From: a virus
Taxonomy: Duplodnaviria; Caudoviricetes
DNA length: 63,098 nt
Reading direction: 5' to 3' (one strand)
IMG/VR virus record: IMGVR_UViG_3300044641_004951
Coordinates: 1 to 63,098 of that record
The stretch's first letter is position 1. Each line of letters starts with the position of its first letter. Of this stretch, positions 1,957-57,765 are shown in pieces. The translations under genes were made by a program, and so were the position numbers. Under the pieces are notes generated by a model. It made no database searches, had not been told where the DNA came from, and was given only the letters and a program-made list of their open reading frames with translations.

Positions 1957-2733
1957 TTATTTACGTAACGTTCTATCTAGCTTAGTAGTATCGGCGCAAG
2001 TGTATTCCTGATAACTTGGCTTTAAGTAATCCGGCATCTTTAAGTACTTTATACTATCGTACGGAGCGACACTTAATGCGACATCTAAAAAGCTTTTGGT
2101 GCTACCAGTTCCTACATTCCAAATACCAGATTCTTCTACGTTTAAAAACTTTTTATGCACATTACAAACGTAGTCCACATGTACAAAATCCCTTACATAG
2201 TATTCACTATTTTCAAATACTAATACTCTACCAGTTTCATTATATTGCTTTTTAAATTTATGATAGGGACTTGCCATATCTCCTTTATGTTCTTCTCCTG
2301 GACCGTATACATTAAAATATCTAAATCCTTGAATAATTATATCGGCGTTACTTAATGAATTAACATGCCTTTCAAAGAGATATTTTGACCATGCGTAAGG
2401 AGTACGTGGATCTATTATCGTATTTTCTACAAATGGCTTTTTGAGCCCGTAGTAATTGCCGTAGACACTTGCAGAACTTGAGTATTGAAAATTAACCTTG
2501 TGCTTAATACATTCATCTAGTAACCTAATACTAAAATCTAAATTCTGCGTTAATACCTTTTCTACGTTTCTTTCAGTAGTTGAGCTTATTGCCCCTATAT
2601 GTAATACCCAGTCGCAATCGCTTACATCTGGTAACTCATCTCCCCATTCATATGTAGTTACTTCATGATCTATAAGATATGATAGTAAATTAGAACCTAT
2701 AAAGCCTTTATGACCAGTCAAAAGTATTTTCAT
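1957..2733 (-). CDS. hldD: ADP-L-glycero-D-manno-heptose 6-epimerase-like extended SDR
   Basis: TGHKGFIGS Rossmann motif, HIGAISSTTE, YSSSASVYG, YAWSK (YxxxK), GFRYFNVYGPGEEHKGDMAS and YQEYTCAD match HldD/RfaD patterns. Confidence 0.88.
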   Translation of the reverse strand: MKILLTGHKGFIGSNLLSYLIDHEVTTYEWGDELPDVSDCDWVLHIGAISSTTERNVEKVLTQNLDFSIRLLDECIKHKVNFQYSSSASVYGNYYGLKKPFVENTIIDPRTPYAWSKYLFERHVNSLSNADIIIQGFRYFNVYGPGEEHKGDMASPYHKFKKQYNETGRVLVFENSEYYVRDFVHVDYVCNVHKKFLNVEESGIWNVGTGSTKSFLDVALSVAPYDSIKYLKMPDYLKPSYQEYTCADTTKLDRTLRK

Positions 2734-3089
2734 TTCTGACTGTCTCCTTTACCGACTCTATAATTATCTTCTACACTATCTGGCGTGCTCACCTCTACAA
2801 TAGTACCTGCTTCAATGCATGTAACCTGATGAGGTTTAAGCGGTTCATTATGCCACGTGTCACCAGCTTCAATAATTTTTTGATATATCGAGGCGTTCTT
2901 TGTATCTATACATTCAACTAAAAATTTTCCATCTAAAACATACCAAGTCTCTTCTTTTTGTGCGTGAAAATGCATGCTGCATTTAGCACCGTAGTTAAAT
3001 TTAAGAAGCTTGCCACAATATGAATCATTTGAAACCCATATTAGTTCGTGCCCCCATCCTTTCTTTACGAAGCCATTTTGCCTTGACAT
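2730..3089 (-). CDS. Cupin-fold protein (sugar isomerase-like)
   Basis: KGWGHELIW...SMHFHAQKEETWYV...PLKPH...EVSTPD cupin metal-binding pattern; overlaps both heptose-pathway neighbours. Confidence 0.75.
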   Translation of the reverse strand: MSRQNGFVKKGWGHELIWVSNDSYCGKLLKFNYGAKCSMHFHAQKEETWYVLDGKFLVECIDTKNASIYQKIIEAGDTWHNEPLKPHQVTCIEAGTIVEVSTPDSVEDNYRVGKGDSQK

Positions 3090-3826
3090 AATATTTCCTT
3101 TAAAGACGGTGCGTATACGCCGATATGTTTCACAGTAATAGACGCAGCAGATATTGCAAATTTAATAGACTGATCATAGTTAAAAGACAACAAATACTGA
3201 TATGCAAACGCAGATAAAAATGTATCTCCAGCGCCACACACATCAGTTATTTCTACGTGTGGAACTTCATATTTTTTATCTCTAAATGTAACGTCTTTCG
3301 ATCCATTCGTTACAATCAAATGGTATGGTAAAGTTTTTGCTTTACTGTATTCAATAGAGTTTATCTTAACAATTCCACCGCTAAATCTTTGTAGATCAGT
3401 TTTTTTCGTGTCTATGATGACTACTTTACCAATCTGAATGAGTCTTTCGATTAATTCATAAGTGACAAAGCCTTTATCATAATCTGAAACGATGAATGCA
3501 TCTACAGATGTATCGAATTTAGTATCGGTTAAAAGAGGATCCGATTTAACATCTTGATCGATTCGAAGTATGTGCTGTTTAGATTTAGAATCTATCATGC
3601 GTATCTTTGTTGACGGTACACCAAAGTATGATGTAACTTGTACGCCTAATGCTTCAAGGTTCTTAAGAACGTTTGATGCCATTCCATACTTAATCTCCAC
3701 GCTATCTTTGACGAAGATAGGCACCGGTGCTTCTGGGCTAATTCTGTCTATATGCCCATAGTGATATTCATCGATGCACGTGTCGCCGATTAATATAACT
3801 TTCAATTGTTTCTGTTGTTGATTCAT
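3065..3826 (-). CDS. hldA: D-glycero-beta-D-manno-heptose-7-phosphate kinase (RfaE/HldE domain I, PfkB family)
   Basis: IGDTCIDEYHYGHIDRISPEAPVP, VSDYDKG and DVCGAGDTF PfkB signature. Confidence 0.88.
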   Translation of the reverse strand: MNQQQKQLKVILIGDTCIDEYHYGHIDRISPEAPVPIFVKDSVEIKYGMASNVLKNLEALGVQVTSYFGVPSTKIRMIDSKSKQHILRIDQDVKSDPLLTDTKFDTSVDAFIVSDYDKGFVTYELIERLIQIGKVVIIDTKKTDLQRFSGGIVKINSIEYSKAKTLPYHLIVTNGSKDVTFRDKKYEVPHVEITDVCGAGDTFLSAFAYQYLLSFNYDQSIKFAISAASITVKHIGVYAPSLKEILCQGKMAS

Positions 3827-4181
3827 TATTTACTCTGTCAAAAAATAACAATGACTCTGAGTATTCTGAGCCAATTACTTTTTTATTTTTCCAATCTGAA
3901 CCTACTATCATTATATCAGGCGAGTATTTTCTAATAGTCTCTTCTAGTTCTTCATCCGTATCAAAAACACTCACTGAATCTACGAATTTCAGACAGCTCA
4001 TTAACTTAACTCTATTGAGTTGGTTATTTATAGGTCTATCAGGGCCTTTCTTTTCTGCAATACGTCGATCGGTGTCTAATGCGACGTGTAGATGAGTTCC
4101 GTTGCTCTTTGCAAATTCAAGTAAACTAAGGTGACCAGTATGTAAAAGGTCAAACGAGCCATTAACAAAAACCTTAGTCAT
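3768..4181 (-). CDS. hldC: Heptose-1-phosphate adenylyltransferase (RfaE/HldE domain II, cytidylyltransferase family)
   Basis: NGSFDLLHTGH (HxGH), KGPDRPIN, VGSDW and C-terminal STT motif; adjacent to the kinase half. Confidence 0.82.
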   Translation of the reverse strand: MTKVFVNGSFDLLHTGHLSLLEFAKSNGTHLHVALDTDRRIAEKKGPDRPINNQLNRVKLMSCLKFVDSVSVFDTDEELEETIRKYSPDIMIVGSDWKNKKVIGSEYSESLLFFDRVNNESTTETIESYINRRHVHR

Positions 4182-5026
4182 AGACCCATTTTTTGGCGTA
4201 TCTCTGTAGCAGAAATCTTGGTAATCTCTTCACCGAACTGTTCTTGCTCAATTGTGTATCCTACGCCTCTACCGTAACCAATATGCACAATATTCGGCAC
4301 AACTAAAATATCATATTGACCCTGATAAAGAATGTCTAGGTCTCTACGGATATAATTCTTGACTTGATCACTGTTAAAAGGATTGGAATCATTCCAGCCT
4401 TGACAATCTCGAATCATAATGCACACTTGGCCGGTCTTTTGTATGAGTCTTTCGAATAGCGCACGGTGGCCTTCGTGCCATGGCTGCCATCTACCAAGCA
4501 TCTGAACAGTTTCTTTTTTCCAGCTAAAAGTAGGTCTACGCCTTTTGTAAAGAATATGATCACCTACAAACTCTACCCATTTCTCAGCATTCTTCTCATT
4601 TATTCTAAAATCGTAGATATCAGGTTGTACGAATGCTTTATTTGTATCTTCATATCGACCGGCATCAATGGTATCCATCCAAATAGTCCAATCGGCTTTA
4701 AAATTGTGGCGCATCTCGGGTAGCGGTGCGACGAAATCGCAAATTACGTAATCACCACTACACTTAAGTGCAAATTCTGCCATGCGTAATGACTGACGAA
4801 TTCTACCCTCGTGAGAAAAATCCCAATCATTAAACTTTTTACGTATTTCATCTGCATTAAACCAATCTACTTTAGATTTATAATGCATAGGTGGCAATTC
4901 GTACTGTGCCATTCTGTACATTGGCATAGAGTCAAAGTTTGAGTTATCTTCGAGATATTTTTTAAGTCGTTCGGCAAAATACGTTTTGCCCGATCCAGGA
5001 AGACCCATGATGAGAATTTTTTCCAT
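4178..5026 (-). CDS. Fusion of an adenylylsulfate-kinase-like P-loop domain and an HxGH nucleotidyltransferase domain
   Basis: N-terminal GLPGSGKT, NADEIR...DFSHEGRIRQ (CysC-like); C-terminal GRWQPWHEGH and ISATEIR. Confidence 0.7.
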   Translation of the reverse strand: MEKILIMGLPGSGKTYFAERLKKYLEDNSNFDSMPMYRMAQYELPPMHYKSKVDWFNADEIRKKFNDWDFSHEGRIRQSLRMAEFALKCSGDYVICDFVAPLPEMRHNFKADWTIWMDTIDAGRYEDTNKAFVQPDIYDFRINEKNAEKWVEFVGDHILYKRRRPTFSWKKETVQMLGRWQPWHEGHRALFERLIQKTGQVCIMIRDCQGWNDSNPFNSDQVKNYIRRDLDILYQGQYDILVVPNIVHIGYGRGVGYTIEQEQFGEEITKISATEIRQKMGL

Positions 5027-5035
5027 TATATACCT

Positions 5036-5791
5036 CTATTGCGGTTTGCAGAGGACGTTATTACCAATAACGTCATATCCATAATCAATATTATCTAAGA
5101 AAGCTTTTATTTCTTCAAAGATAGTTTTTCTATTGTCACAGTGCTCTATAAAGATTACTGGTAAGTGCTTCTTAATAGTATTTAATCCACCGGTCAGTAC
5201 GTCTAAATCCATACCTTCTACATCGATCTTTAACAGATGAATTTTAGGAATATTGTAATACTCCATAAACCAGTCCAAGGTATTAATAGACACCGTGATT
5301 TTGTTCTTGCTAGCTGGCACTATATCTTCTACTAAACTAAATGTACCGAAGTCACAATTTTGAAAGTAATTTGGTTCTTGAAACTCAACCTTGGTATTTT
5401 CTTTGCCGATTCCAATATTGTATGCGTATACGTTATACAAATTATTAATTGCTGCGTTACCTGCTAGCATCTGAAATACTGCACGCTGAGGTTCAAAAGC
5501 ATATACTTTACCATTAGGAAATGCCTTGGCCATCCAGGTGGTAAAGGTGCCTATGTTAGCACCAATATCGAAAATCACCGGCTCTGTGAATTCCTTAATG
5601 GTGTTATAGCAGTTAGCGGCCTCAATAGTTGACGTATTGCCGTGGTCAAGTAACCATTGTCCGTGCCCTACGCCCTCATGATTGCAATCAAAGCGGTTTA
5701 CAATCATGAGCCCGTGGTCACAACTTAACAAAACATTGCGGTGAATCTTGTCACCGATATTGAATATCATTTCTGATACTTGTGAAACCAA
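5036..5791 (-). CDS. FkbM-family methyltransferase
   Basis: FDIGANIG, AFEPQ, LKIDVEGMDLDVL, PVIFIE. Confidence 0.88.
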   Translation of the reverse strand: MVSQVSEMIFNIGDKIHRNVLLSCDHGLMIVNRFDCNHEGVGHGQWLLDHGNTSTIEAANCYNTIKEFTEPVIFDIGANIGTFTTWMAKAFPNGKVYAFEPQRAVFQMLAGNAAINNLYNVYAYNIGIGKENTKVEFQEPNYFQNCDFGTFSLVEDIVPASKNKITVSINTLDWFMEYYNIPKIHLLKIDVEGMDLDVLTGGLNTIKKHLPVIFIEHCDNRKTIFEEIKAFLDNIDYGYDVIGNNVLCKPQ

Positions 5792-6378
5792 TCCTCAAAG
5801 CGACCTGGCTTATGTACTTTAATGAATATATTTACGCTCTCGACTACGTTTGACATAGTGTTGAGATTAATGTCCATTTGCCTTGGGCCTAGCATTCCAT
5901 CGCGCTGTAGCTGTAGCCAGTAGTTAATCATGTTGTATGTTGTGTCATATACTTCTAGATCAATGCCGTGATAAAGACCGAATGTACTGTCACTGAGTTT
6001 CTTTTCGATAGATTCAAAGTTGACTTTTTGGTCAAACATTTTGAACGTTTTAGCTGACAAAGGTCGAACATGCGTATAATCATCCCAGTATAAATCACAT
6101 CTGTGATGAGGTACGTTAATGAACCATTCCGCACCGTCTTTACTAACGCGATACATTTCTTTAATGACGTTCGTAAACACCTTAGGACTTTGACCTAGAT
6201 GCTCAAGAATATTATCGGCATTAATTTTAACGAAGAAATTATCTTCATATGGCCATGGAGTGACTTCAAAGTCTAGAACTTCATCTGGGTTACATTTTTT
6301 CTCAATATCAACGTTCCAATGATCATTGAGTTTCTTGAACCCGCAGCCCATATTTAGTTTTGTATGTTCAGGCGTCAT
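5767..6378 (-). CDS. Class I SAM-dependent methyltransferase
   Basis: KLNMGCG, NVDI, ILEHL, EMYRV..., DYTHVR. Confidence 0.8.
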   Translation of the reverse strand: MTPEHTKLNMGCGFKKLNDHWNVDIEKKCNPDEVLDFEVTPWPYEDNFFVKINADNILEHLGQSPKVFTNVIKEMYRVSKDGAEWFINVPHHRCDLYWDDYTHVRPLSAKTFKMFDQKVNFESIEKKLSDSTFGLYHGIDLEVYDTTYNMINYWLQLQRDGMLGPRQMDINLNTMSNVVESVNIFIKVHKPGRFEDWFHKYQK

Positions 6379-6387
6379 TATGAATCC

Positions 6388-7194
6388 TTAAATCCAGGCA
6401 TCCCAGAAAATCTCTCTGTTGTACTGCTCGTACAGGTCTAAGCCGAGATATTCAACACAGTTCACAGTTGTTTTCTCAAGGGACGGCTTGACTTTATGAA
6501 GATTTGGAAGCCCGATTGCAAGATCATTATACGTCTCTGCCTGTTCAATTTTTGCAAAATCGTGCTTAAATTCCGGTAGTTCAAAGAAGTCGTAAATTCT
6601 CTTTGTCTGACTCTTTGGGCTATTGCAGAATCTGTTGTAATCCACGAACAGAAAACGATCAATATAACCCATTGTAATAGCGTCTTTGAGATTTCTATGG
6701 CTAAGACCTAAAGCGCCTTCGGGCCCGGCATAATAATACGCTCTTGATGCAATGTTAGAGCCTTCCCTGAGATGTGCGTCCACGTTAGTGAAGAACAGAG
6801 GATTTTCTTTACGCATTCTTTCAAATGACGTTAGAATCTCTGCTGGATTTCTAACGCAAATGACCATCTTTACTTGTCTTTGAAGGATAGCTTCAAGTTG
6901 TCCGATAAGCGGTACCCAGCCTCTGTCCTTATCAAATACGATTGGTTTATCGATGTGAGAATAGTATCCTTCTAGAACACCTCTAAGTACACCTGCTTTT
7001 GCTTGATCGTTTCTGTATTCTTTATTGCTGTCGATGCTACCCCAACTAGCATTTACCGAGCCAAAAATTGAAGAGAGAGAGGTTACGGATTCTCCATGCA
7101 CTTCGGGATTCTGCTTGATAAGATTGGTTATAAGAGTAGAACCTGATCTAGGTAGACCGGAAATAAAATGTAAATTATCTTTGTTCATCATCAC
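6388..7194 (-). CDS. Sulfotransferase-family protein
   Basis: 5'-PSB loop SGLPRSGSTL and 3'-PB motif VRNPAEILTSF. Confidence 0.82.
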   Translation of the reverse strand: MMMNKDNLHFISGLPRSGSTLITNLIKQNPEVHGESVTSLSSIFGSVNASWGSIDSNKEYRNDQAKAGVLRGVLEGYYSHIDKPIVFDKDRGWVPLIGQLEAILQRQVKMVICVRNPAEILTSFERMRKENPLFFTNVDAHLREGSNIASRAYYYAGPEGALGLSHRNLKDAITMGYIDRFLFVDYNRFCNSPKSQTKRIYDFFELPEFKHDFAKIEQAETYNDLAIGLPNLHKVKPSLEKTTVNCVEYLGLDLYEQYNREIFWDAWI

Positions 7195-7229
7195 TCCATT
7201 AGATATAGTTAATTATATAGGTTAATTTT

Positions 7230-8288
7230 TTAGCTTTCTTTTTCTACTGGTTTAGGAAAGAGTCTGCTCAATTCATCCGATACTTCGGCGAATGTGTCAT
7301 CCCATTTGCCGAATTTTTTCTGCCTGAACACCGTAGTGGTTTCTTCATACCACGGGCTATGCTTATCACCGTGCGCCCAAATATGGTACGGTAATAAAGG
7401 CACTATGACCCATGTAGGTTTGCCCATAGCAGATGCTAGGTGCGCTATACTTGTACACGATGTTATAACTAAATCGAGATTTTGAATACATGCAGCAGTA
7501 TCTTCCCATGACATTATTAGATGTTGGAGATCGGAGATTTCATCTGGTAGTTCTCTCACATCAGTATCTCTCTGCAGACTATAAAATTGAATATGATCTC
7601 TGTCTTTATAAAGATTTATTAATTTCTCTGCTGGAAATAAACGAAACTGTTGATGCTCGAAAAGTGGGCTGCCGCTCCACCGAATACCTACTTTAATTTT
7701 AGTTGTATTGAGTATTGATTTCCATATATCTACACTTTCAGATTTAGCAAATAGGTAAGGTTGATTAGGCAATGTTTCAAATGAGTGCCCAAAAAGCCAA
7801 CTACAACTAAAACCTGGAATCCAATAATCATGAAAAGTAGAACTAACTTGTTCTAGTGTAATGCATTTATGTGTACCGGGTATTCTATTGAACAATGGAT
7901 GCAATGATTTTTCACAACAATGAATTGCTATACCTCCACGTTTCCACACTTCAGTAGCAAACCTAGCATAGATAATTTGATCTCCGAACCCACATTCCAT
8001 ATTAAGAATGACGGTTTTGCCGGTCAGATCATCTTCACCATTCCAAATAGGTTTCGTAGTGTTTATTTTACCGGAACCGTAAACTTTGAGTGCTCTACCG
8101 TATTCTAGGCACTGAAACCCTTCTCGTAGTTTACCCTGATTGATAAGGAACCAACCTCGATTAAACTTAGCTCTGGGATCGGTTGGATCGTTAGCCTCCA
8201 TTTGCTCGGCTAATTTCCAACCCTCTTCAAATCTACCACGTATCATTAGATTTAATTGCTGATCTATCAAATGCATAGTTAACCTCAT
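7230..8288 (-). CDS. TPR-containing GT-B glycosyltransferase (GT9/heptosyltransferase-like C-terminus)
   Basis: TPR-like N-terminus, ECGFGDQIIYARF, KVGIRWSG, FYSLQ, DTAACIQNLDLVITSCTSIAHLASAMGKPTW. Confidence 0.75.
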   Translation of the reverse strand: MRLTMHLIDQQLNLMIRGRFEEGWKLAEQMEANDPTDPRAKFNRGWFLINQGKLREGFQCLEYGRALKVYGSGKINTTKPIWNGEDDLTGKTVILNMECGFGDQIIYARFATEVWKRGGIAIHCCEKSLHPLFNRIPGTHKCITLEQVSSTFHDYWIPGFSCSWLFGHSFETLPNQPYLFAKSESVDIWKSILNTTKIKVGIRWSGSPLFEHQQFRLFPAEKLINLYKDRDHIQFYSLQRDTDVRELPDEISDLQHLIMSWEDTAACIQNLDLVITSCTSIAHLASAMGKPTWVIVPLLPYHIWAHGDKHSPWYEETTTVFRQKKFGKWDDTFAEVSDELSRLFPKPVEKES

Positions 8289-8302
8289 GTACCATAAATG
8301 TA

Positions 8303-8310
8303 TATTTATA
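8303..8310 (-). promoter_or_regulatory. T4-type late promoter heading the modification-enzyme operon
   Basis: Exact TATAAATA on the minus strand just upstream of the 8288 ORF. Confidence 0.75.
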
Positions 8311-8322
8311 CACTAAACTAAA

Positions 8323-11300
8323 TTAGCTCCTTTTTAACCCTACCGTATGAGTACCACCAGTACTTATCGCGGTCCAACTGCTGCTACCAATTTGTACTGG
8401 ACTAGATTTAGTTACTGTCGTACCATCACCTAATTTACCGTAAGAGTTACTTCCCCACGTAAATAGTAACTTATCGGATCTAATAGCTGATGTTTGCTGA
8501 AGACCCGCGCTAACGGCAGTCCAACTGCTGCTGCCGATTTGTACTGGGCTTGATTTACCAACAAGTGTTCCATCGCCTAATTGCCCTGACGAACCAGTTC
8601 CCCATGTAAATAATCTACCTACAGAAGTTATACCTGCAGTATGATATCTACCTGCACTTACCGCAGTCCAACTGCTGCTACCAATTTGTACTGGGCTGGA
8701 TTTATCATTTGTTGTATTATCACCTAATTCTCCCGCGTGAGAACCAGAATTTAAACCCCAGGTAAATAATGTACCACCTGATCTGATAGCAGCAGTATGT
8801 GAAGAACCAGCACTTACAGCGGTCCAGCTACTGCTGCCGATCTGTACTGGACTATTTCTACCAGATACCGCGGTACCATCGCCTAATTGACCGGAAGTGC
8901 CTAGACCCCATGCAAATAGGTATCCATCCGATCTAATAGCCATAGTATGAGCTAATCCAGCACTAACTGCCGTCCAACTGCTGCTACCAATTTGTACTGG
9001 ACTGGATCTTGTTATTGAAGAATTGTTACCGACTTGCACCGGGCTAGATTTAGTTGCTACAGTACCATCACCTAACGCACCTTGTGTACCTAGACCCCAT
9101 GTAAATAATGTACCTCCTGATCTAATAGCCGCAGTGTTAAAGCTTCCAGCACTAACTGCCGTCCAACTGCTGCTACCAATTTGTACTGGACTAGATTTAC
9201 CTACCACAGTACCATCACCTAGCTGACCGGAAGTGCCTTGTCCCCAGGTGAATAATGTACCACCTGATCTTATAGCTGAAGTGAGTAAGCGCCCCGCATC
9301 GACTGCCGTCCACGAACTTGAACCTATTTGTATAGGGCTTCGTATAGTAGTTGTTGTGTTATTACCTAACTGACCAGAAGAGTTAGAACCCCAAGTAAAT
9401 AGGTAACCATCCGATCTGATAGCCGCAGTATGTGAACCACCGGCACTTACTGCCGTCCAGCTACTGCCGTTGATTTCAAAAGGGCTATATCGATTAATTG
9501 CAATTGCGTTACTTCCAACTTGCACTGGACTTGATAAGCTAGTTGTAGTAATACTGTCACCTAGTTGACCTATTGCACCATTACCCCAAGTAAATAATGT
9601 ACCTCCTGATCTAATAGCGGTAGTATGACCACTGCCGGCACTAACTGCTGTCCAACTGCTACTTCCAATCTGCACTGGACTAGATTTAGATACTGTCGTA
9701 CCATCACCTAATTGTCCGGTAGCGCCTAAACCCCAGGTAAATAATGTACCACCTGATCTTATAGCTGAAGTATGATATTTACCAGCACTTACTGCTGTCC
9801 AACTGCTGCTACCAATCTGTACAGGGCTGGATCTGTTTGTTATAGTACCATCACCTAATGCACCCGCGCCAGTGCCGGAATTAATCCCAAAGGTAAATAA
9901 TGTACTACCTGATCTAATAGCTGCACTATGAAAACCACCAGCACTAACTACCGTCCAGCTACTGCTACCAATCTGTACAGGGCTGGATCTGTTTGTTGTA
10001 TTACCATCGCCTAATTGACCGGAAGTGCCTAGACCCCATGCAAATAGGTAGCCATCTGATCTTATAGCTAGAGCATGACCACCACCAGCACTCACTGCTG
10101 TCCAACTGCTGCTACCGATTTGTACCGGGCTTGATTTAGATATCGCGGTACCGTCACCTAGTCTACCGTTTGAGCTTAGACCCCAGGTGAATAATGTACC
10201 TCCGGATCTTATAGCGGTATTAAAGTTAAGACCTGCATCTACTGCTGTCCAACTGCTGCTACCAATTTGCACTGGGCTGGATTTAGTTACGCTGGTACCA
10301 TCGCCTAATTGACCGGAAGTGCCTAGACCCCATGCAAATAGGTAGCCATCCGATCTGATAGCCGCTGTGTGAGTAGAACCTGCACTAACTGCCGTCCAAC
10401 TACTACTTCCAATCTGCACTGGAGACCTTCTTAAATTTGTAGTTTCGTCACCTAATTGACCGGCTGTATTATAACCCCAGGTAAATAATAGACCATCTGA
10501 TCTAATAGCTGCTGTATGTGTGTCACCGGCGCTAACAAGAGTCCAACTAAAAATGTTCGTGACTTGACCTAATTGACCATCTAGACCACTACCCCATGTA
10601 AATAATGTACCACCTGATCTAATAGCTGCGGTATGTAAACCACCACCACTAACTACCGTCCAGCTGCTGCTACCAATTTGTACTGGACTAGATTTGGATA
10701 TTGCGGTGTTATCACCTAATTGACCGGAAGAGCCCGAACCCCACGTAAATAAGTAACCATCCAATCTGATAGCTGCATTATGGTAAAGTCCTGCATTAAC
10801 TGCCGTCCAACTGCTGCTACCAATTTGTACTGGACTAGATTTAGATACTATAGTACCATCGCCTAATTGACCGGAAGTGCCACGTCCCCACGTGAATAAT
10901 AAACCATCCGATCTAATAGCTGCTGTATGATCCAATCCGGCACTAACTACCGTCCAGCTACTGCTACCAATTTGTACTGGGCTAGATTTATTAGTTATTG
11001 TACCGTCACCTAGCTGACCATACCCATTAAAACCCCATGCAAATAATATTCCGTCCGATCTAATAGCCGTAGTGTGATTAGCACCAAAACTAACAAGAGT
11101 CCAACTAAGTGAATCTGTAATTTCACCCAACCGACCGTTTGTGCCGTCGCCCCAAGTAAAAAGATAGCCATCTGATCTTATTGCGGCGGTATGGGCACCG
11201 CCAGCATTAACTGCCGTCCAGCTACTGCTACCAATTTGTACTGGGCTAGATTTATTAGTTATTGTACCGTCACCTAGCTGACCGGTATCGTTTCGACCCC

Positions 11301-13788
11301 ATGTGAATAATAAACCATCTGATCTAATAGCTGTAGTATGATTTAATCCGGCAGTAACTAAAGTCCATGAAAATGAACCTACTAGTATAGGGCTTGAAAC
11401 TGTCTGAACATTGTTGCCAACTTGCACTGGACTGGATCTGCTTGTTCCAGTACCATCGCCTAACTGACCAGAAGAGTTAGAACCCCAGGTAAATAACGTA
11501 CCACCTGATCTTATAGCAGTAGTATGACCACCACCGGCACTTACTGCTGTCCAACTACTACTGCCGATTTGAACAGGGCTAACTCTTTGTGAAGTAGTAC
11601 CATCACCTAGTCTACCGGTTGTGCCGGCGCCCCAGGTAAATAATGTACCACCTGATCTAATAGCCGCAGTGTGTAGAGCACCAGCAGTAACTGCCGTCCA
11701 ACTACTGCTACCTATTTGAACGGGACTCGAAAAATCGCCACTACTACTACCATTACCTAGTCTACCGCTTGTGGCTGAACCCCATGTGAATAGGTAACCA
11801 TCTGATCTTATAGCAGCAGTATGTGTAGAACCAGCACTTACAGCGGTCCAGCTACTGCTGCCGATCTGTACGGGGCTGGATTTGTTTATTAAAGTACTAT
11901 CACCTAATTGACCGAAGCCTGAGTGACCCCAGGTAAATAATGTACCACCTGATCTTATAGCCGCAGTGTGTGAACCAGCACCAGCACTTACAGCGGTCCA
12001 GCTACTGCTGCCGATCTGTACGGGGCTGGATTTGGATATTGCGGTGTTATCACCTAATCTACCGTAAGAGTTACCTCCCCATGTAAATAATGTGCCACCT
12101 GATCTAATAGCAGCAGTATGTGAGCCACCGGCACTTACTGCCGTCCAACTACTACCACCTACTTGTACCGGGCTAGATTTGCTACTTTTTATCTCATTAT
12201 TTCCTACTTGCACTGGACTACTGGTAGTAGTTGCGTTATCATTGCCTAATTGACCAGAAGTACCTAGACCCCACGTAAAAAGTAACCCGTCCGATTTAAT
12301 AGCAGTAGTATTATTATAACCCGCAGAAACCATTGTCCAACTACTGCTACCTATCTGAACTGGACTAGATCGAGCGGTAACACTAGTATCATCTCCTACT
12401 TGACCAGATGCGTTTGAACCCCAGACGAATAATGTACCTCCGGATCTAATAGCCGCTGTACCGCGCCGACCGGCAGTCACTGCTACCCACGAACTAGAAC
12501 CAATTTGCACCGGGCTTGAATTAGTTGATATAGTTCCATCACCTAATTGACCAAAATCAGCGTTGCCCCATGTAAACAGAGTTCCTCCAGACCTTATAGC
12601 CGCTGTGTGTGAGCCTCCTGCAGCGACTGCTGTCCAGCTACTACTTCCAATTTGCACCGGGCTCGATCTAGATGTTAAAGTACTATCACCTAACTGCCCT
12701 GCTAAGTTTCCACCCCACGTAAATAATGTACCTTCGGATCTTATAGCCGCTGTGTGTGTAATACCGGCACTAACAGCAGTCCAAGAACTAGAGCCAATTT
12801 GTACCGGGCTGTTTCTAGTAGTAGTAGTACCGTCTCCGACTCTCCCATAACTATTAAGTCCCCACATGAACAGTCGACCGTCCGATCTAATAGCACCAGC
12901 ATGTAAAGTACCTGCAGCGACAGCAGTCCAGGAACTGGAACCAATTTGCACAGGGCTTGATTTTGTGACCGATGTACCGTCACCCAGTTGAGATGAAGTT
13001 CCGATACCCCATGTAAATAATAGTCCATCTGTTCTAATAGCTGCACTAAAGTCAACCCCAGCACTCACAGCAGTCCAAGAACTAGAGCCTATTTGCACCG
13101 GGCTTGATTTACTTACTATAGTTCCATCACCTAATTGACCGGAAGTGCCTAGACCCCATGTGAATAATAAACCATCCGAACGTATTGCAGCGGTATGAGA
13201 AGCACCCATGCTGACAAGAGTCCAACTATATGATTCAGAAATATGACCTAATTGACCGAAAGTGCCGGAGCCCCAGGTAAATAATGTACCACCTGATCTA
13301 ATAGCAGCAGTGTGAGATAAGCCAGCACTTACAGCGGTCCAACTGCTGCTACCAATTTGTACTGGACTAGATTTAGATACTATAGTACCATCGCCTAATT
13401 CACCATTTAGACCTCTACCCCATGTAAATAATAGACCATCTGATCTAATAGCTGCTGTATGTGCGTCAGCGGCGCTAACAAGAGTCCAACTATAAGTATC
13501 TGTTAATTGTCCAAGTTGACCGACGGAGCCGGATCCCCAAGCATAAAGTTGAAGTGTTGTTGGACCTACCGTGCCTACAGCAGCAAACATAGTACCAATA
13601 TCTACAGAACCAGATTGTAAGTTAGTAGTGCCAAAAGCAGTCCCACCATTACTCACACTGTAGTAATAGTTAGAAATATCTGTACCACCGACGGTATAAT
13701 TTACGTCGGCTCTTTTTGATGAAGAGCCGATAGGTTCAAATAACGAATCTAAATCAGAACCACTTACTCTAAAGCTGGTAGTAGGCAT
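8323..13788 (-). CDS. Giant RCC1/BLIP-II repeat beta-propeller protein (35 blades), putative fibre-associated adhesin
   Basis: ~49-aa repeats WTAVSAGxxHTAAIRSxGxLFTWGxxxxGQLGDxTxxxxSSPVQIGSSS; lies just downstream of a fibre gene. Confidence 0.88.
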   Translation of the reverse strand: MPTTSFRVSGSDLDSLFEPIGSSSKRADVNYTVGGTDISNYYYSVSNGGTAFGTTNLQSGSVDIGTMFAAVGTVGPTTLQLYAWGSGSVGQLGQLTDTYSWTLVSAADAHTAAIRSDGLLFTWGRGLNGELGDGTIVSKSSPVQIGSSSWTAVSAGLSHTAAIRSGGTLFTWGSGTFGQLGHISESYSWTLVSMGASHTAAIRSDGLLFTWGLGTSGQLGDGTIVSKSSPVQIGSSSWTAVSAGVDFSAAIRTDGLLFTWGIGTSSQLGDGTSVTKSSPVQIGSSSWTAVAAGTLHAGAIRSDGRLFMWGLNSYGRVGDGTTTTRNSPVQIGSSSWTAVSAGITHTAAIRSEGTLFTWGGNLAGQLGDSTLTSRSSPVQIGSSSWTAVAAGGSHTAAIRSGGTLFTWGNADFGQLGDGTISTNSSPVQIGSSSWVAVTAGRRGTAAIRSGGTLFVWGSNASGQVGDDTSVTARSSPVQIGSSSWTMVSAGYNNTTAIKSDGLLFTWGLGTSGQLGNDNATTTSSPVQVGNNEIKSSKSSPVQVGGSSWTAVSAGGSHTAAIRSGGTLFTWGGNSYGRLGDNTAISKSSPVQIGSSSWTAVSAGAGSHTAAIRSGGTLFTWGHSGFGQLGDSTLINKSSPVQIGSSSWTAVSAGSTHTAAIRSDGYLFTWGSATSGRLGNGSSSGDFSSPVQIGSSSWTAVTAGALHTAAIRSGGTLFTWGAGTTGRLGDGTTSQRVSPVQIGSSSWTAVSAGGGHTTAIRSGGTLFTWGSNSSGQLGDGTGTSRSSPVQVGNNVQTVSSPILVGSFSWTLVTAGLNHTTAIRSDGLLFTWGRNDTGQLGDGTITNKSSPVQIGSSSWTAVNAGGAHTAAIRSDGYLFTWGDGTNGRLGEITDSLSWTLVSFGANHTTAIRSDGILFAWGFNGYGQLGDGTITNKSSPVQIGSSSWTVVSAGLDHTAAIRSDGLLFTWGRGTSGQLGDGTIVSKSSPVQIGSSSWTAVNAGLYHNAAIRLDGYLFTWGSGSSGQLGDNTAISKSSPVQIGSSSWTVVSGGGLHTAAIRSGGTLFTWGSGLDGQLGQVTNIFSWTLVSAGDTHTAAIRSDGLLFTWGYNTAGQLGDETTNLRRSPVQIGSSSWTAVSAGSTHTAAIRSDGYLFAWGLGTSGQLGDGTSVTKSSPVQIGSSSWTAVDAGLNFNTAIRSGGTLFTWGLSSNGRLGDGTAISKSSPVQIGSSSWTAVSAGGGHALAIRSDGYLFAWGLGTSGQLGDGNTTNRSSPVQIGSSSWTVVSAGGFHSAAIRSGSTLFTFGINSGTGAGALGDGTITNRSSPVQIGSSSWTAVSAGKYHTSAIRSGGTLFTWGLGATGQLGDGTTVSKSSPVQIGSSSWTAVSAGSGHTTAIRSGGTLFTWGNGAIGQLGDSITTTSLSSPVQVGSNAIAINRYSPFEINGSSWTAVSAGGSHTAAIRSDGYLFTWGSNSSGQLGNNTTTTIRSPIQIGSSSWTAVDAGRLLTSAIRSGGTLFTWGQGTSGQLGDGTVVGKSSPVQIGSSSWTAVSAGSFNTAAIRSGGTLFTWGLGTQGALGDGTVATKSSPVQVGNNSSITRSSPVQIGSSSWTAVSAGLAHTMAIRSDGYLFAWGLGTSGQLGDGTAVSGRNSPVQIGSSSWTAVSAGSSHTAAIRSGGTLFTWGLNSGSHAGELGDNTTNDKSSPVQIGSSSWTAVSAGRYHTAGITSVGRLFTWGTGSSGQLGDGTLVGKSSPVQIGSSSWTAVSAGLQQTSAIRSDKLLFTWGSNSYGKLGDGTTVTKSSPVQIGSSSWTAISTGGTHTVGLKRS
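8330..13550 (-). repeat. Coding tandem repeat, ~147-nt unit, 34 full units plus two half units
   Basis: Recurrent ccaactgctgctaccaatttgtactgg-type blocks on the + strand at ~147-nt spacing. Confidence 0.9.
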
Positions 13789-13797
13789 TCGTAATTT

Positions 13798-14097
13798 TTA
13801 TTCTTGAGGTGTTTCGTCTACAATATTTTCTGGTGGTGATTGAGGTATGGGTAGTATATCTCTACGCTCATATACTTCACCATCTACCACAGAGTGAAAT
13901 AGATAGTCAGACATTTTATGCGTCGTTGCATCAAATGGTGTTGTATCTCTAACAATCTTTACAAATCCATTTTCACGCATAAAGACAGGATCTACAGCAC
14001 ACTTAAGATGAAAGTTATCGTGTTCATTCCATGTCTTAGGTAGTAGATCATATACTCCTTTTATTTCACCATCTACTAAATTTGCATAAACTGTCAT
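13798..14097 (-). CDS. Small hypothetical protein, possible fibre assembly factor
   Basis: 99-aa ORF coupled (ATGA overlap) to the fibre gene and directly before the RCC1 gene; function inferred from position only. Confidence 0.5.
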
Positions 14098-17000
14098 TTA
14101 TTACCTCCTAATATACTTTTCAGTTCGTCTATTTGTTTTTGTTGTTCTTTAATCGATTCAATTAATAGAGCAATAATGCTGTCATAAGAGACAGATTTAA
14201 TTCCCTTTTCATTTGTATCAACTACTTCAGGAACTATTTTCTCAACTTCTTGAGCAATAATACCAATTGCTGGTCTCTTATTGTCAATCCAGTTGAAAGA
14301 AACACCTCTCATTAACATAATCTTTTCTAGTGAATTGATGAGAGTGTTTATATTCTCTTTTTTATTTATATCGGATAATGTATTAAAGATAGTCGCGTTT
14401 AATGTTCCAGTGCTTGGATTAAAATAAAATTTTGTAGAAGATGCTTCTGCAGTTTGAGCAGTACCAATCGCTGCAACAAAGACTGGATAGTGAGTTGCAT
14501 TAGTTGTAGATTCTTCTGCAGCATTAATAGAAGTTGATGGGCCTGCGGGACCTTGAGGGCCTTGTGCACCTGTTCCCGTCACACCTTGCGGACCTTGAGG
14601 GCCTTGTGCACCTGTTCCCGTCACACCTTGAAATCCTTGAGGGCCTTGTGCACCTGTACCGGTCACACCTTGAAATCCTTGAGGGCCTTGTGCACCTGTA
14701 CCGGTCACACCTTGAGGGCCTTGTGTGCCAGTAGTGCCTTGTGGGCCTTGTGAGCCAGTAGTCCCTACAGTACCTTGAGGACCCTGCGCACCTGTGGTGC
14801 CAACGGTGCCTTGTGGGCCCTGAGCACCTGTTGATCCAATTTCACCTTGAGGTCCTTGGGCACCTGTAGAACCTGTAGATCCTTGAGGGCCTTGGGCACC
14901 AGTTGTGCCTGTGGCTCCTTGTGGGCCTTGTGCGCCAGTAGAGCCTGTTGTTCCTTGTGGGCCTTGAGCGCCTGTTGTTCCTTGTGGGCCTTGAGCGCCT
15001 GTTGGACCCTGAGGTCCCTGAGTACCTGTTGGGCCCTGAGGTCCTTGTGAGCCTTGAGTTCCTGTAGGACCTTGCGGGCCTTGTGCGCCTGTCGGGCCTT
15101 GCGGGCCTTGAGATCCTGTAGTACCTTGCGCGCCTGTAGGACCCTGTGGGCCTTGTGCACCTGTTATGCCAGTAGCTCCTTGTGGACCTTGTGCACCTGT
15201 AGTACCGGTAGCTCCTTGCGGGCCTTGTGCGCCTGTTGTTCCTATAGTACCTTGTGGACCTTGAGATCCTGTTGTACCTTGAGGGCCTTGGGCACCAGTA
15301 CTACCTGTAGATCCTTGAGGGCCTTGAGCTCCAGTGGATCCTGTTGTACCTTGAGGGCCCTGGGCACCTGTACTACCTGTTGTACCCTGTGGACCTTGAG
15401 CTCCAGTGGATCCTGTTGTACCTTGAGGGCCCTGGGCGCCAGTACTACCTGTAGATCCTTGAGGGCCTTGTGTTCCTATAGTACCTTGCGGACCTTGAGC
15501 TCCGTCTATACCCTGAGGACCTTGAGAGCCTATAGTACCCTGAGGACCTTGAGAGCCTATAGTACCCTGAGGACCTTGAGGGCCGGTAGGTCCAGTATCT
15601 CCAGATCTTGCAAATGTAACTGATAATGGAGTACTATTTGCAAAATTATTACTGCCAGAAAGATAAGATACTGGTACAGAGAAGTAATGAGTTAAATGAG
15701 TATGACTTCCTACAATAGCAAATACTGCAAAGTTGTTGTTGTTTGCATTTTCTGTAATGACGAAATGCCCCTTGATAGATGCAGTCGAATCGTCAATTGT
15801 CTGTAAATAACTATAAATGTTAGCGCTAGGAGACGATCCGTCACTCTGATCAATGTAAAGATTAGCAGCAAGCTTAATATCAGCTGTGCTAAATCTTAAA
15901 ATTCCATCACCGGGTTCGCTGTTAGTAGTATCTGAACTATAGGTATAGGTAAAGTTAGCGCCACCAAAGCTACCCTGTGATCCTTGTGGACCCTGTGAAC
16001 CGGTTGTACCTGTAGTGCCTTGTGGGCCCTGTGAACCCGTTATACCCTGAGGTCCCTGAGCACCTATTGTACCTTGCGGTCCTTGAAAGCCAGTCGTGCC
16101 TTGAGGACCTTGAGCACCTGTAGACCCTGTTGTACCTTGTGATCCTTGTGTTCCAGTAGTACCTACTATACCTTGAGGTCCCTGGGCACCGGTACTGCCT
16201 GTAGCGCCTTGTGGTCCCTGAGCACCTGTAGACCCTGTTGTACCTTGTGGGCCTTGTGCTCCATTGTCACCTTGAGGTCCTTGTGAGCCAGCTGTACCGG
16301 TGGTACCTTGAGGACCTTGGGCACCTGTAGATCCATCGTTACCTTGAACGCCTTGTGGTCCTTGAACCCCGGTTGTTCCTTGAGGACCCTGTAAGCCTGT
16401 TGATCCTGTAACTCCCTGAGGACCTTGAGAACCGGTAGTTCCTTGAGGGCCCTGTGCTCCTACCGTACCTTGAGGTCCTTGACTACCGGTAGATCCAACT
16501 ACTCCCTGTTGACCCTGCGCACCTGCTTCACCTTGCGAACCAGTGGCTCCTTGTGCTCCAGTTGTACCTGTTGTACCTTGAGGGCCTTGAGTGCCGGTAG
16601 TACCGGTTGTTCCTTGAGGACCCTGTGAACCTGTAGCTCCAGCCGTTCCTTGAGAGCCTTGTGCACCAGTGTCACCTTTAGGTCCCTGTGATCCTTGTGC
16701 GCCTGCGGTACCAGTTGTTCCTTGAGGTCCCTGGGCTCCTGTCGGACCGGTAGATCCTTGAGTGCCTTGTGCACCCGTTGATCCATTTGTACCCTGAGGT
16801 CCTTGCGCACCTGTGGATCCAGTAGTACCTTGAGGGCCTTGTGATCCTGCGTTTCCTTGAGGTCCTTGGGAGCCATCAGCTCCAGTAGTTCCTTGTGATC
16901 CTTGAGATCCTGCTGGACCTTGTGCTCCTTGAGCACCAGTAGTACCCGTTGCACCTTGATTGCCTTGGGAGCCCTGTGCTCCTGTTGTACCGGTAGATCC

Positions 17001-18086
17001 CTGCGGTCCATCTATACCGGTACTACCTTGAAAACCTTGCGGGCCAGCAGGTCCGTTATTACCTATAGTACCTTGAAATCCTTGAACTCCTGTTGATCCT
17101 TGCGGCCCTTGAGGACCAGCTGGACCAATATCTCCAGTTCTAGCAAAAGTAACTACAATTGACGTATTGTCTGTGAAGTTATTGCTTCCGGATAGATAAG
17201 ATATTGGGACTGAAAAGTAATGAGTATTATGAGTATGGTAGCCAGTAATAGCAAAAATAGCAAAATTATCATTATTTGCCAACTCAGTAATAACAAAATG
17301 ACCTTTGATAGCCGCTGAAGAATCATCAATGGTTTGAAGGTAGCTATAAATGTTAGCACTAGGTGCCGACCCATCCGCCTGATCGATGTATAGATTGGCG
17401 GCAAGCTTGATATCCGCTGTACTGAATCTTAAGTATCCGTCTCCTGGCTCACTGTTTGTAGTATCAGTATCATAGATATAGTTAAAGCTAGCTCCACCAA
17501 ATCCACCTTGCGAACCTTGAGCACCAATGTCACCTTGGTACCCTTGCGAGCCTTGAATGCCTATCTCACCTTGAGGACCTTGAGGTCCAGTGTCACCCTG
17601 GTACCCTTGCGAGCCTTGTGAGCCTTGAGTTCCAGTAGTTCCTGTTATACCTTGAGGTCCTTGGGCACCTGTGGATCCGGTTGCACCTTGCGCGCCTTGT
17701 GACCCTGTTGTACCTGTAGAACCTTGGGGGCCCTGAGCACCTGTAGAACCTGTAGTACCTTGCGGGCCTTGTGCGCCTGTTTGTCCTTGTGAACCCTGTG
17801 CACCAGTAGTTCCTACTGTACCTTGAGGCCCTTGATTGCCTGATGGACCAGTAATACCTTGTGAGCCTTGAGCACCTATAGGGCCTGTAGAGCCTGTTAG
17901 ACCTTGAGCACCTGTAGGACCCTGGGAGCCAACTGCGGTAATGCTGAAGACGTTATTACTAGTATCCTTAGAGTATAGTACCCTATCGCTAAGGTTAATG
18001 GCTAATTCACCGGGCTGCAAAACGTTGTTTGCGGGAATTTGCCCAGGTACAACAGATCTCTTAAGTTGTATTGTAGTATTAGCCAT
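14094..18086 (-). CDS. Collagen-like tail fibre with C-terminal intramolecular chaperone (peptidase S74-like)
   Basis: N-terminal IQLKRS...[16 protein letters not shown] fibre attachment motif; long Gly-X-Y tracts; C-terminal SDINKKENI...[12 protein letters not shown]...[14 protein letters not shown]. Confidence 0.88.
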
Positions 18087-22063: not shown

Positions 22064-25000
22064 CTATTTTATTTTATCGTTAAGCTCTTTAACTGCCTGG
22101 ATAAGAAGTGCTATAATTTTCTCGTAGTTTACAGCATAATATCCATTATTACGCATCACAACTACTTCAGGTAATACAGTATTTATTTCTTGAGCAATAA
22201 TACCTACATCAACTTTATTTCTATCTGGATAAAGTTGCTTACCAATATCATTCCATTCGAAATAATAGCCATTAATACTTTCTAACATACCCAAAGCATT
22301 TTCAATTATTTTCTTATTAGTCTTAAGTCTATCATCAGATGAGTAATATGCTGTAATATCGTTAGTAGCAACGATTTGACCAGCTGTACCTGTAGCAGCA
22401 ACACCCACACCTAAAGAGTTAACTTGTGCGTTAGAACCGGTTGAAAAGCCACCTGTAGTACCTTGATTACCTTGAGGTCCTTGTACACCTGTAGTACCCT
22501 GCGGGCCGTTAGGACCTTGTGCACCTGTTGTGCCTTGAGGTCCATTCGGTCCTTGTGGGCCTAAAAGACCAGTTGGTCCCTGTGCCCCAGTAGGTCCTTG
22601 AGGGCCAGTACTACCTTGAGCACCTCTATCACCCGTTCTAATAAAATCAATTACAATTCTAGAATTATTAGTAGGTAAAGTAGTACCAGTTACTAGGCTA
22701 ACTGGTATCTTATAATACCCTACAGCCCCTGTTACAGTTCCGGTTACTCTAAAGATATTTACAACGTCGCTGGCATTACCAGAAATTACTAGGTAACCTT
22801 TATCGGTATTAGTACTATCATCAAACGTTTCATACCAATTAATTTGCGAATTTAAACCTACATCTACGTTATCAATGTAGATGTTTAGTACCGAGGCAAT
22901 AGTAGCGTTATCATAACGTAATATACCGTTACCAGGATCACTGTCGGTAGTTGTAGTGCTAAATGTGTATAATACACCACCTCTAGTACCCTGAGAGCCT
23001 TGAACGCCTTGTGAACCCTGTGAGCCCTGGGCTCCTGTCGGTCCTTGAGCACCTTGAGCACCCTGGGCTCCTTGTGGACCCTGCGAACCTTGCGCACCTG
23101 TAGGTCCTTGCGGGCCTTGAGCACCTGTAGGTCCTTGTGCACCCTGCGAACCTTGCGGGCCTTGAGCACCTGTAGGTCCTTGTGGACCCTGCGAACCTTG
23201 CGCACCTGTAGGTCCTTGCGAACCTTGCGCACCTGTAGGTCCTTGTGGACCCTGCGAACCTTGCGCACCTGTAGGTCCTTGCGGGCCTTGAGCGCCTGTT
23301 GATCCTTGGTTACCTGTAGGGCCTTGAGCACCCGTTGGCCCTTGAGCACCGGTTGATCCCTGTACACCAGTCGGACCCTGACTCCCTGTTGGTCCCTGGG
23401 GTCCAGTTGGCCCGGCTACACCTACTGAGCCAGACAAGTTAACTTGCCATGCGGTATATGTACCAGAACCCGTGACGCCAGTAGTACTAAATGTAAGACT
23501 TCCAGTACCTGAATTATATGTTGTTACAGTTGCATCCTGGAAGTTACTTACATCAAATGCTATCTTAATAGATTGACCGGCAGTATAATTTAATCCAGTT
23601 CCAATTGTAATTGTACCTGAATTACCAGAACTTTGTAATGTATAGCTAGTTGAACTAGTCGTAGCGTATTTGTCACCAGCAAAACCTTGATTGCCTTGTG
23701 GACCTTGAGCACCTTGTGGGCCCTGAGCACCTTGTGGGCCCTGAGCACCTTGTGACCCTTGAGCACCCTGGGCACCTTGTGCACCTTGTGCACCTTGAGC
23801 TCCTTGAATACCTGTAGGGCCCTGAGCACCTGTAGGGCCTTGGGCTCCTGTTGGTCCCTGTGAACCTGTTGGTCCCTGTGACCCGGTAGGACCGGCGATA
23901 CCTACAGAACCAGAAAGATTTACTTGCCAAGAAGAATATGTACCGCTTCCCGTCACTCCTGTTGTATTAAAAGCAAGTGCTCCAGAACCAGAATTATACG
24001 ATGTAACCGCAGCATCCTGGAAGTTACTTACATCATATGCTATCTTAATAGATTGACCGGCCGTGTAATTTAATCCTGTGCCGACAGTGATTGTGCCTGA
24101 GTTTCCTGCATTTTGTAAAGTATAACTACTTGAACTAGTAGTAGCGTACTTGTCGCCTGCAAATCCTTGAGAACCTTGCGGACCTTGAGGACCCTGAGCT
24201 CCTGTCGGACCCTGTGGACCCTGGGCACCGGTAGGTCCCTGCGGCCCTTGAGCGCCTGTTGGACCTTGCGGTCCTTGTGCACCTAATGGACCCTGTGGGC
24301 CCTGGGCGCCTAGGTCACCAACCACTGAAAATTCTAAATTAACTACTTCATTATTTAAAAATACATCACTACTACCAATATGCACTACAGTAAATCTTCT
24401 TACACCTGCAGTACCAGTAATGATAGGACCTGTAACTCTAAACGACGCTATCTTGTTAGGAAATTCTGATGATCTAAACGTTAATACCGCTCTATTGCTA
24501 CTTGTAGAATCATCTAGAAAATCTAGAATATCAGTGATTGTAGCTCCGGTGTATTCAACTAAATCAAGAGCGATTTCAGTTACTGAAGAATATGTTGTGC
24601 TGTTAAATCTAAAGTACCCACTACCTGGATCTGCTGCCGTAGTAGTATTTGTACTAAATTGATAAATTAATCCGGAGTAATTAGTTAGAGGTAATGTCTT
24701 TACTCCATCATTAGTAAACTTCCACAGGTCGTTGGCTTCGTCCCAAAAAATCGAGACATTGCTGCTTGATCCTCTATTAACAGTAATGTTTACGTTACCT
24801 ATAGGCGCTTGAGAGCCTGTAACTGTAGATAGAAATACTAGGTTACCGGTACCAAGTTGTAAAGCATCTGAGCCTGTAAGTCTAGTCTGACCTGTTACTG
24901 TTAAATTGCCAGAAACATGAGCTACCGTAGTGTTAACTACAAGAGTAGTAGCATGGGTGGTATTAGCCGCAGTAGTTCTAAACGACTCGGAAGCCGCACC

Positions 25001-25135
25001 TGAGCCGAATGCATAGACATTAAGAGAAGCATTAGATACAAAAACGTTACCAGTAGTGGTAACAGTATTGCTAAACGTAGCTGCTTCTGCTACTTCTATA
25101 CCATGCTTAACGCGAAAATTCTGTGTGTTAGACAT
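22064..25135 (-). CDS. Second collagen-like fibre with C-terminal S74-like chaperone
   Basis: NFRVKHG N-terminus, Gly-X-Y tracts, [16 protein letters not shown]...GIIAQEI..LPEVV...[15 protein letters not shown]. Confidence 0.87.
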
Positions 25136-57746: not shown

Positions 57747-57765
57747 GTAATCTCCAGAAAAAAAT

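Follow-up and report, generated by a model that had tools for sequence, protein, structure and literature searches.

How a chain of 35 RCC1 repeats could fold when the repeat is broken at eight points is the question raised by a gene of a tailed virus (Duplodnaviria; Caudoviricetes), a T4-like cyanophage. The gene, at 8323..13788 on the (-) strand, lies in the IMG/VR record IMGVR_UViG_3300044641_004951, an uncultured viral contig estimated to be 37% complete, of which positions 1 to 63,098 were analysed (63,098 nucleotides (nt) in all, referred to below as the window). The best reading of the break points, resting on sequence patterns and on analogy with a solved protein, is that the product probably consists of five seven-bladed RCC1 propellers linked as a tree through domain insertion, with one ring growing out of a blade of another.

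The gene is an intact open reading frame (ORF), encoding 1821 amino acids (aa) followed by a stop, as seen in the ORF list and the translation. When the protein was compared with Pfam, the RCC1 repeat (PF00415) scored 1014.6 bits against a cut-off of 21.7 over 32 stretches and the RCC1-like domain (PF25390) 1192.4 bits against a cut-off of 150 over 8 stretches. Splitting the protein at S-W-[TV] gives 35 RCC1 units. The ordinary units are 49–52 aa long and in both of the AlphaFold2 models described below contain the strands SWTAVSAG (A), HTAAIRS (B), LFTWG followed by G-Q-L-G (C) and SSPVQIGSS (D). At the DNA level the repeats are ~70% identical, and Tandem Repeats Finder divides the 147-nt period into sub-arrays, most of which end near the break points. 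These are of two kinds. At the positions termed opens, units 2, 16 and 20 are 39 aa long and end six residues past G-x-L-G, without the S-P strand (D); the N-terminal half repeat (aa 78–99) ends in the same way. At the closes, units 9, 14, 27 and 30 are 62–65 aa long with two S-P strands each, the order being a D strand ending in G-N-N or G-S-N, a linker of 4–7 residues, a second D strand and the ordinary S-S-W turn. The tryptophan of the SWTLVS restart after each open is at nt 13488, 13224, 11103 and 10545, and the last base of the GNN or GSN after the first strand of each close is at nt 12196, 11410, 9508 and 9022. In the order of the protein chain the features of the gene are:

8323..13788 (-): the whole gene, a multi-propeller RCC1 protein by the reading given here, 1821 aa plus stop (ORF list, translation and Pfam).
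13558..13788 (-): N-terminal non-repeat domain, aa 1–77, the proposed anchor (similarity to the L017/L011 protein, see below).
13492..13557 (-): N-terminal half repeat (strand C, G-Q-L-G) and open 1, aa 78–99; proposed strand C of the closing blade of the core.
13228..13491 (-): first part of arm 1, repeats 1–2, aa 100–187; repeat 2 lacks strand D (open 2).
12196..13227 (-): inner propeller 1, repeats 3–9, aa 188–531; seven complete blades ending in SSPVQVGNN.
12151..12195 (-): close 1, linker and second S-P strand, aa 532–546; proposed strand D of repeat 2.
11410..12150 (-): second part of arm 1, repeats 10–14, aa 547–793, ending in SSPVQVGNN.
11371..11409 (-): close 2, linker and second S-P strand SSPILVGSF, aa 794–806; proposed strand D of the closing blade of the core.
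11107..11370 (-): core propeller, repeats 15–16, aa 807–894; repeat 16 lacks strand D (open 3).
10549..11106 (-): first part of arm 2, repeats 17–20, aa 895–1080; repeat 20 lacks strand D (open 4).
9508..10548 (-): inner propeller 2, repeats 21–27, aa 1081–1427, ending in SSPVQVGSN.
9463..9507 (-): close 3, linker and second S-P strand, aa 1428–1442; proposed strand D of repeat 20.
9022..9462 (-): second part of arm 2, repeats 28–30, aa 1443–1589, ending in SSPVQVGNN.
8980..9021 (-): close 4, linker and second S-P strand SSPVQIGSS, aa 1590–1603; proposed strand D of repeat 16.
8326..8979 (-): core propeller, repeats 31–34 and the C-terminal half repeat (strands A–B), aa 1604–1821.

If each unit is denoted B and each half unit b, the chain can be written as b(BB(BBBBBBB)BBBBB)BB(BBBB(BBBBBBB)BBB)BBBBb. 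The four junctions that lack a D strand and the four that have two come in balanced order, and each of the five levels of the 1821-aa protein holds exactly seven blades: repeats 3–9; repeats 1–2 and 10–14; repeats 21–27; repeats 17–20 and 28–30; and repeats 15–16 and 31–34 with the two half repeats. When four opens and four closes were placed at random over 35 junctions, five levels of exactly seven arose in 6 of 2,000,000 trials. A sequence-only reading made earlier had described the eight breaks as balanced parentheses, and its coordinates for the four restarts and the four closes, the order of the breaks, the repeat memberships and the total of 5 × 7 are all exact. It had also suggested that single repeats would group by their position in a ring. 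This holds in so far as SWTLV is confined to repeats 1, 3, 15, 17 and 21, which would each be the first blade of one of the five rings; otherwise the blade of the same number in another ring was the best match for 6 of 34 blades (a hand count), which is near chance and shows little positional grouping. The SWTL mark is not general either, residue 4 after the open junction not being distinctive across 382 sequences.

In the proposed fold the chain would leave a blade at each open after strand C, through the six-residue linker, and would next build a complete seven-blade ring from strand A to a strand D of the form SSPVQVGNN or its GSN variant. Returning through the linker of 4–7 residues, it would supply the missing strand D of the interrupted blade and then pass by the ordinary G-S-S-S-W turn into the blade that follows. 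The core ring would be made up of repeats 15, 16 and 31–34 together with a closing blade, in which the C-terminal strands A–B would be joined by strand C from the N-terminus and by the strand that follows repeat 14. Arm 1 (repeats 1, 2 and 10–14) would be borne by this closing blade and would itself bear inner ring 1 (repeats 3–9) on its second blade; arm 2 (repeats 17–20 and 28–30) would be borne by repeat 16 and would bear inner ring 2 (repeats 21–27) on its fourth. Nested in this way, every blade would have four strands and every ring seven blades, and the short linkers would presumably suffice because the ends of an inserted ring adjoin one another, at the point where the ordinary turn of three residues would connect its last blade with its first, and strands C and D of the host blade are neighbours.

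We infer the nesting in three dimensions by parsimony and by analogy with Trm734. This yeast protein, of which human WDR6 is a relative, is a solved three-propeller WD40 protein that acts as a scaffold in tRNA methylation, and its chain passes from d7 of the last propeller, BPC, through BPA as far as c7, a complete BPB and d7 of BPA to BPC (PMC6847430). As in the fold proposed here, the insertion is at the c-d loop, in the seventh blade of BPA, and there is a long-range closing strand, giving nested brackets of depth 2 (PMC6847430). Trm734 differs from the window protein in being a eukaryotic WD40 rather than an RCC1 protein, with diverged blades and one insertion, without recursion or branching.

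Insertion of whole seven-blade cassettes into the C-D loop predicts seven blades per bracket across varied trees, and the sequence-only reading had expected homologues with 7n repeats and different depths of nesting. Such a rule was found in many relatives with trees of other shapes. The query and 240 homologues (241 proteins) were parsed by the length of the gap from G-x-L-G to the next S-W, a parser that misreads some proteins; a hidden Markov model of the D strand, tried for classing the junctions, missed many strands and was replaced by the gap length. The gaps are trimodal, with peaks at 6, 16–17 and 30 residues. At least one matched bracket pair is present in 84 of the 241 proteins, and exactly seven direct blades were counted in 141/240 matched pairs, or in 69/113 when only pairs free of partial units or unparsed gaps are taken. 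A second set, assembled from DNA loci on viral, metagenome and genome contigs, yielded 141 distinct RCC1 ORF pieces, in which 140/176 matched pairs hold seven blades and 6/176 hold fourteen. The scan of genome contigs gave four loci in metagenome-assembled genomes, two of them with RCC1 ORF pieces and none bracketed.

The trees themselves vary. Among the relatives the shapes include b(7)6b, b(4(7)3)6b and b2(7)3(7)1b, in which the numerals count blades; L014 has seven propellers at a depth of five, and P0017, parsed manually, combines a single insertion with a threefold nest, with seven blades throughout. The 2152-aa ORF of L051, from position 2000 onward, is a pure fivefold recursion of 4(...)3 arms, and L048 and L102 are listed with it for pure 4+3 recursion. 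The 4+3 arm is the commonest type, accounting for 17 of 23 distinct arm segments from other contigs. A particularly close comparison is offered by L017 (8001–13451), whose protein has 1816 aa against the 1821 of the window protein, a closely similar N-terminal domain and the same two arm types. It reads b(4(7)3)BBBB(2(7)5)BBb, the arms being swapped in order and attached at different core blades, so that, as parsed from the two sequences, the tree is re-wired between L017 and the window phage.

Other relatives depart from these shapes. L012, L013, L031, L071 and others have some levels of fourteen blades, for example b(BBBB(4(7)3)BBBBBBBBBB)BBBBBBb, and L131, L124 and L126 have closes without detectable opens and yet blade totals that are multiples of seven. 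Either two rings lie at one level in such proteins or the parser misses a kind of open. The closest cultured relatives of the protein are in the Synechococcus phages BUCT-ZZ01 (53% identity, family Kyanoviridae) and S-SRM01. The 700-aa protein of BUCT-ZZ01, like that of the window, is an RCC1 protein of the tail module, but it is an uninterrupted 14-blade array without brackets. Its 1st and 8th full blades are divergent, giving a seven-fold period (L180, 6131–8233), which suggests, from the sequence, two sequential rings. The gene is annotated as ‘BNR repeat domain protein’, a name that looks wrong for an RCC1 protein.

The strands that would complete the interrupted blades are conserved. When 19 arms of the 4+3 type, taken from the contig loci and 53–69% identical to that of the window, were aligned, their second strands proved to keep S-P-x-Q-x-G, and the linkers preceding them vary among the relatives. 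P581, W589, S741 and P742 are invariant and S580, Q583, G585 and S588 at least 90% conserved, positions S580–G585 belonging to the strand of close 3 and S741 and P742 to that of close 4. Judged by this alignment the second strands match ordinary fourth strands in their degree of conservation, and they are unlikely to be surface loops because the invariant S-P-x-Q-x-G is retained. An alignment of the arm with 53 full-length bracketed homologues was dropped, as it spread the query over more than 1000 inserted residues in most of the longer rows. In L051 blade 4, just before the open, is 97–100% identical between levels and blade 5, just after the close, 91–97% identical between neighbouring levels, the copies of blades 4 and 5 lying more than 1000 residues apart in the sequence. 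Such near-identity across levels implies that a discontinuous ring is copied as one unit, and points to recent copy-and-insert events of whole discontinuous rings.

Two parts of the protein were modelled with AlphaFold2 and judged by the predicted local distance difference test (pLDDT), the predicted template modelling score (pTM), strand assignment and Foldseek scores, measures from which ring membership is unreadable. Run 1 covered aa 78–806 with a generic alignment of 120 shorter homologues, mostly uninterrupted 14-blade proteins, and gave a mean pLDDT of 88.9 and a pTM of 0.61. Because bias from that alignment was suspected, run 2, covering aa 856–1603 (from repeat 16 through arm 2 with its inner ring 2 to the last returning strand), used 18 arms of identical bracket pattern; the mean pLDDT was 80.9 with a pTM of 0.56, the five models ranging from 80.9 to 49.5. 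Ordinary repeats have four strands in both models. The models contain seven-blade RCC1 rings, at least one of which superposes on UVR8; in a Foldseek search of the PDB the matches at ranks 1–13 had template modelling (TM) scores of 0.83–0.91, normalised to UVR8, over 360–390 columns, with root mean square deviations from UVR8 of 1.6–2.2 Å for most entries and 3.8 and 4.1 Å for two; by sequence UVR8 aligns to aa 191–520, inside repeats 3–9. Repeat 2 was modelled in run 1 with three strands only. The N-terminal half repeat, folded in that run without its ring, was unstructured, with pLDDT below 50 over construct residues 1–8 and 10–20 and averages of 33 and 40 for the first two 10-residue blocks. 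A three-chain complex run (repeats 17–20; repeats 21–23 as the rival; the second strand and repeats 28–30 as the partner) scored 0.00; it had no controls and counts neither way.

Several results weigh against the nested fold, some of them in favour of the rival explanation that the repeats form five sequential propellers (1–7, 8–14, 15–21, 22–28 and 29–35). The breaks would then be tolerated recombination scars, repeats 2, 16 and 20 three-stranded blades and the second S-P strands loops. The sequence-only reading had looked to AlphaFold for discontinuous propellers; both runs left the second strands unmodelled at low confidence. The strand after repeat 9 (close 1) was not a strand in run 1, its two 10-residue blocks having pLDDT of 62 and 54; nor was that after repeat 27 (close 3) in run 2, where pLDDT was below 50 over construct residues 572–585, and the strand of close 4, after repeat 30, had three strand residues only, in blocks of 40 and 34. 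Over both runs the block means of the second strands are 32–62, so that completion of the broken blades was not reproduced. The weakest blades were repeats 7–8 in run 1 (blocks of about 72–86) and repeats 22–23 in run 2 (65–86), in each case where seven consecutive repeats counted from the first blade of the arm would end, and the kept models may for this reason be sequential. Relatives with at least 14 uninterrupted repeats exist, implying that rings can follow one another without special linkers, and given the BUCT-ZZ01 array such sequential packing is probably possible. The counts in relatives have limits too: the database and contig sets, with seven blades in 141/240 and 140/176 pairs, overlap and include close relatives, so these are not independent events, and the gap-length parser finds 24 of 42 apparently complete bracketed ORFs balanced and 18 unbalanced. 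At least six of these 18 begin at a contig end, and some others have closes without a detectable open.

Five sequential propellers are nevertheless unlikely, since they would leave unexplained the seven blades at each bracket level, both here (6 in 2,000,000 random trials) and in the relatives, the balance of opens and closes, and the presence in supposed loops of an invariant S-P-x-Q-x-G followed by the ordinary S-S-W turn. L051 would have five three-stranded blades and five orphan strands. The first-blade mark SWTLV stands at repeats 1, 3, 15, 17 and 21 and not at 1, 8, 15, 22 and 29, and the closing blade of the core would still require the strands of both chain termini to meet the one that follows repeat 14, which is already nesting. 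That the break points are assembly artefacts in a repetitive metagenome gene, the real gene being an uninterrupted array, might be supposed from the uncultured origin and incompleteness of the contig and from the similarity of its repeats in DNA; this is very improbable, as repeats that share ~70% identity are divergent enough to be assembled, the frame stays open for all 5.4 kb, the pattern is seen again, in other topologies, on dozens of independent contigs and a mis-join would not yield paired D-less and double-D junctions with seven blades between them. More improbable still is an arrangement other than seven-bladed rings, whether a single large ring or an open solenoid built of blades, for which no supporting point was found: the solved RCC1 relatives that matched are without exception single domains of about 350–480 residues, the model superposes on UVR8 with the TM scores given above and the bracket period of seven fits closed seven-blade rings. 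The nested insertion of seven-repeat cassettes put forward in the sequence-only reading is thus favoured by the family rule, by the conserved second strands and by the precedent of Trm734, although the fold itself was not confirmed by AlphaFold2.

Single RCC1 rings are textbook knowledge. UVR8, RCC1, the RCC1-like domains of HERC1 and HERC2, and RPGR share with the window protein the repeat family and the seven-blade ring, with sequence E-values down to 8e-46 and TM scores of 0.83–0.91 to UVR8 and HERC2, and in these domains too the ring is closed by strands from both ends of the chain, as is proposed here. They differ in having one ring per domain, no ring lying inside a blade in any matched entry, and their roles in nucleotide exchange, ultraviolet-B sensing and as ubiquitin ligase scaffolds are not indicated for the window protein. 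RCC1 repeats also occur in the genomes of the Pseudomonas phages PollyC and Littlefix and of Clostridioides difficile phiCD211-like phages, none of which is described as nested. The DDB1 family also covers SF3B3 and CPSF160, and the middle propeller of DDB1, BPB, is joined by two linkers, like an inserted domain. Unlike the window protein these are WD40 proteins without recursion. Three WD40 propellers in one chain are described for the DDB1 family in the Trm734 paper (PMC6847430). A literature search, which excluded subscription journals and supplements, returned no RCC1 rings nested in each other, no recursion beyond one insertion and no branched trees, and within the same limits nothing relevant on RCC1 in phage receptor-binding proteins. 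The sequence-only reading had held the architecture to be undescribed; one propeller inside another is in fact already known from Trm734 and the DDB1 family, and it is the recursion and the branching for which no description was found.

The position of the gene suggests where such a protein might act. It lies on the same strand as, and directly after, a collagen-like tail-fibre ORF at 14094..18086 (-), with baseplate wedge genes at 34–42 kb of the window, a tail-module location of the kind expected of a tail-fibre or receptor-binding protein; the BUCT-ZZ01 relative likewise follows a tail-fibre gene. Megablast of positions 7000–15000 against GenBank phages gave no match. The first 77 residues show about 9 differences, counted by hand, from the L017/L011 protein with its different propeller tree, and match an 88-aa hypothetical ORF directly after the tail-fibre gene in the Xanthomonas phages FoX1–5, M29 and Murka (~38% identity, E 3e-5; L179, 4989–5255). 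They also match PHROG 11610, which has no assigned function, and weakly, below the Pfam cut-off, CBM_56. The relatives L014 and L009 start directly with a repeat, without a preceding domain. In a Foldseek search of BFVD the PollyC and Littlefix proteins, annotated as tail fibres, matched weakly, with a TM score to the model of 0.24. Several bacterial or metagenomic homologues carry laminin-G-like or Por-secretion domains. In L017 and L014 the RCC1 genes are followed by similar series of ORF sizes, only lengths having been compared. Taken with this gene order, it would seem that the protein belongs to the tail-fibre apparatus and is held there by the conserved 77-residue N-terminal domain, and a plausible role would be the display to the host surface of multivalent, re-wirable propellers attached to the virion, with a part in adsorption. 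The sequence-only reading had taken the protein for a dendritic adhesin, a role that the gene context would suggest.

For the wider family a more general proposal can be made, which we hold at about even odds: that recursive RCC1 proteins in freshwater T4-like cyanophages and their relatives arise by insertions into C-D loops, the resulting branched trees reaching at least seven propellers and five levels, and that closely related phages rearrange these trees at a single conserved locus through recombination of near-identical blades. Under the same proposal the rearrangements would serve to vary a multivalent organ of host binding, and only those would survive that are balanced and leave seven blades in every ring. 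If the nesting is real, recursive domain insertion would have gone unusually deep in a natural family, a single fold being placed inside itself over as many as five levels, and close relatives would show many different trees. The family would then offer a natural series on how discontinuous domains of near-identical repeats find their partners, and another on how recombination explores architectures under the constraints of balanced breaks and seven blades per ring. As AlphaFold2 seems to prefer sequence-local packing here, the family is a useful test case for structure predictors. It would also be a variable and probably surface-exposed component beside the cyanophage tail fibres, differing in architecture as well as in sequence between related phages.

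Between the RCC1 gene and a T4 neck-protein gene at 440–1177 lies a run of sugar- or sulfate-modifying genes (1957–8288 (-)). It includes a 352-aa ORF at 7230–8288 (-) without a Pfam or PHROG match, and the following genes:

6388–7194 (-): sulfotransferase.
5036–5791 (-): FkbM-type methyltransferase.
4178–5026 (-): P-loop kinase with a weak match to adenylylsulfate (APS) kinase.
3065–3826 (-): PfkB-like kinase fragment.
1957–2733 (-): NAD-dependent epimerase/dehydratase.

On the other side of the RCC1 gene two large collagen-like (G-x-y) ORFs, at 14094–18086 and 22064–25135 (-), match PHROG tail-fibre families. The first of these contains two copies of a non-collagen domain of ~110 aa, and its C-terminal end presumably resembles tail-fibre chaperone-protease domains. 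At 57726–58132 and 61149–62961 (-) ARAGORN reports 12 clustered tRNA genes and one putative call resembling a transfer-messenger RNA, with the tag peptide ANDERFLAAA.

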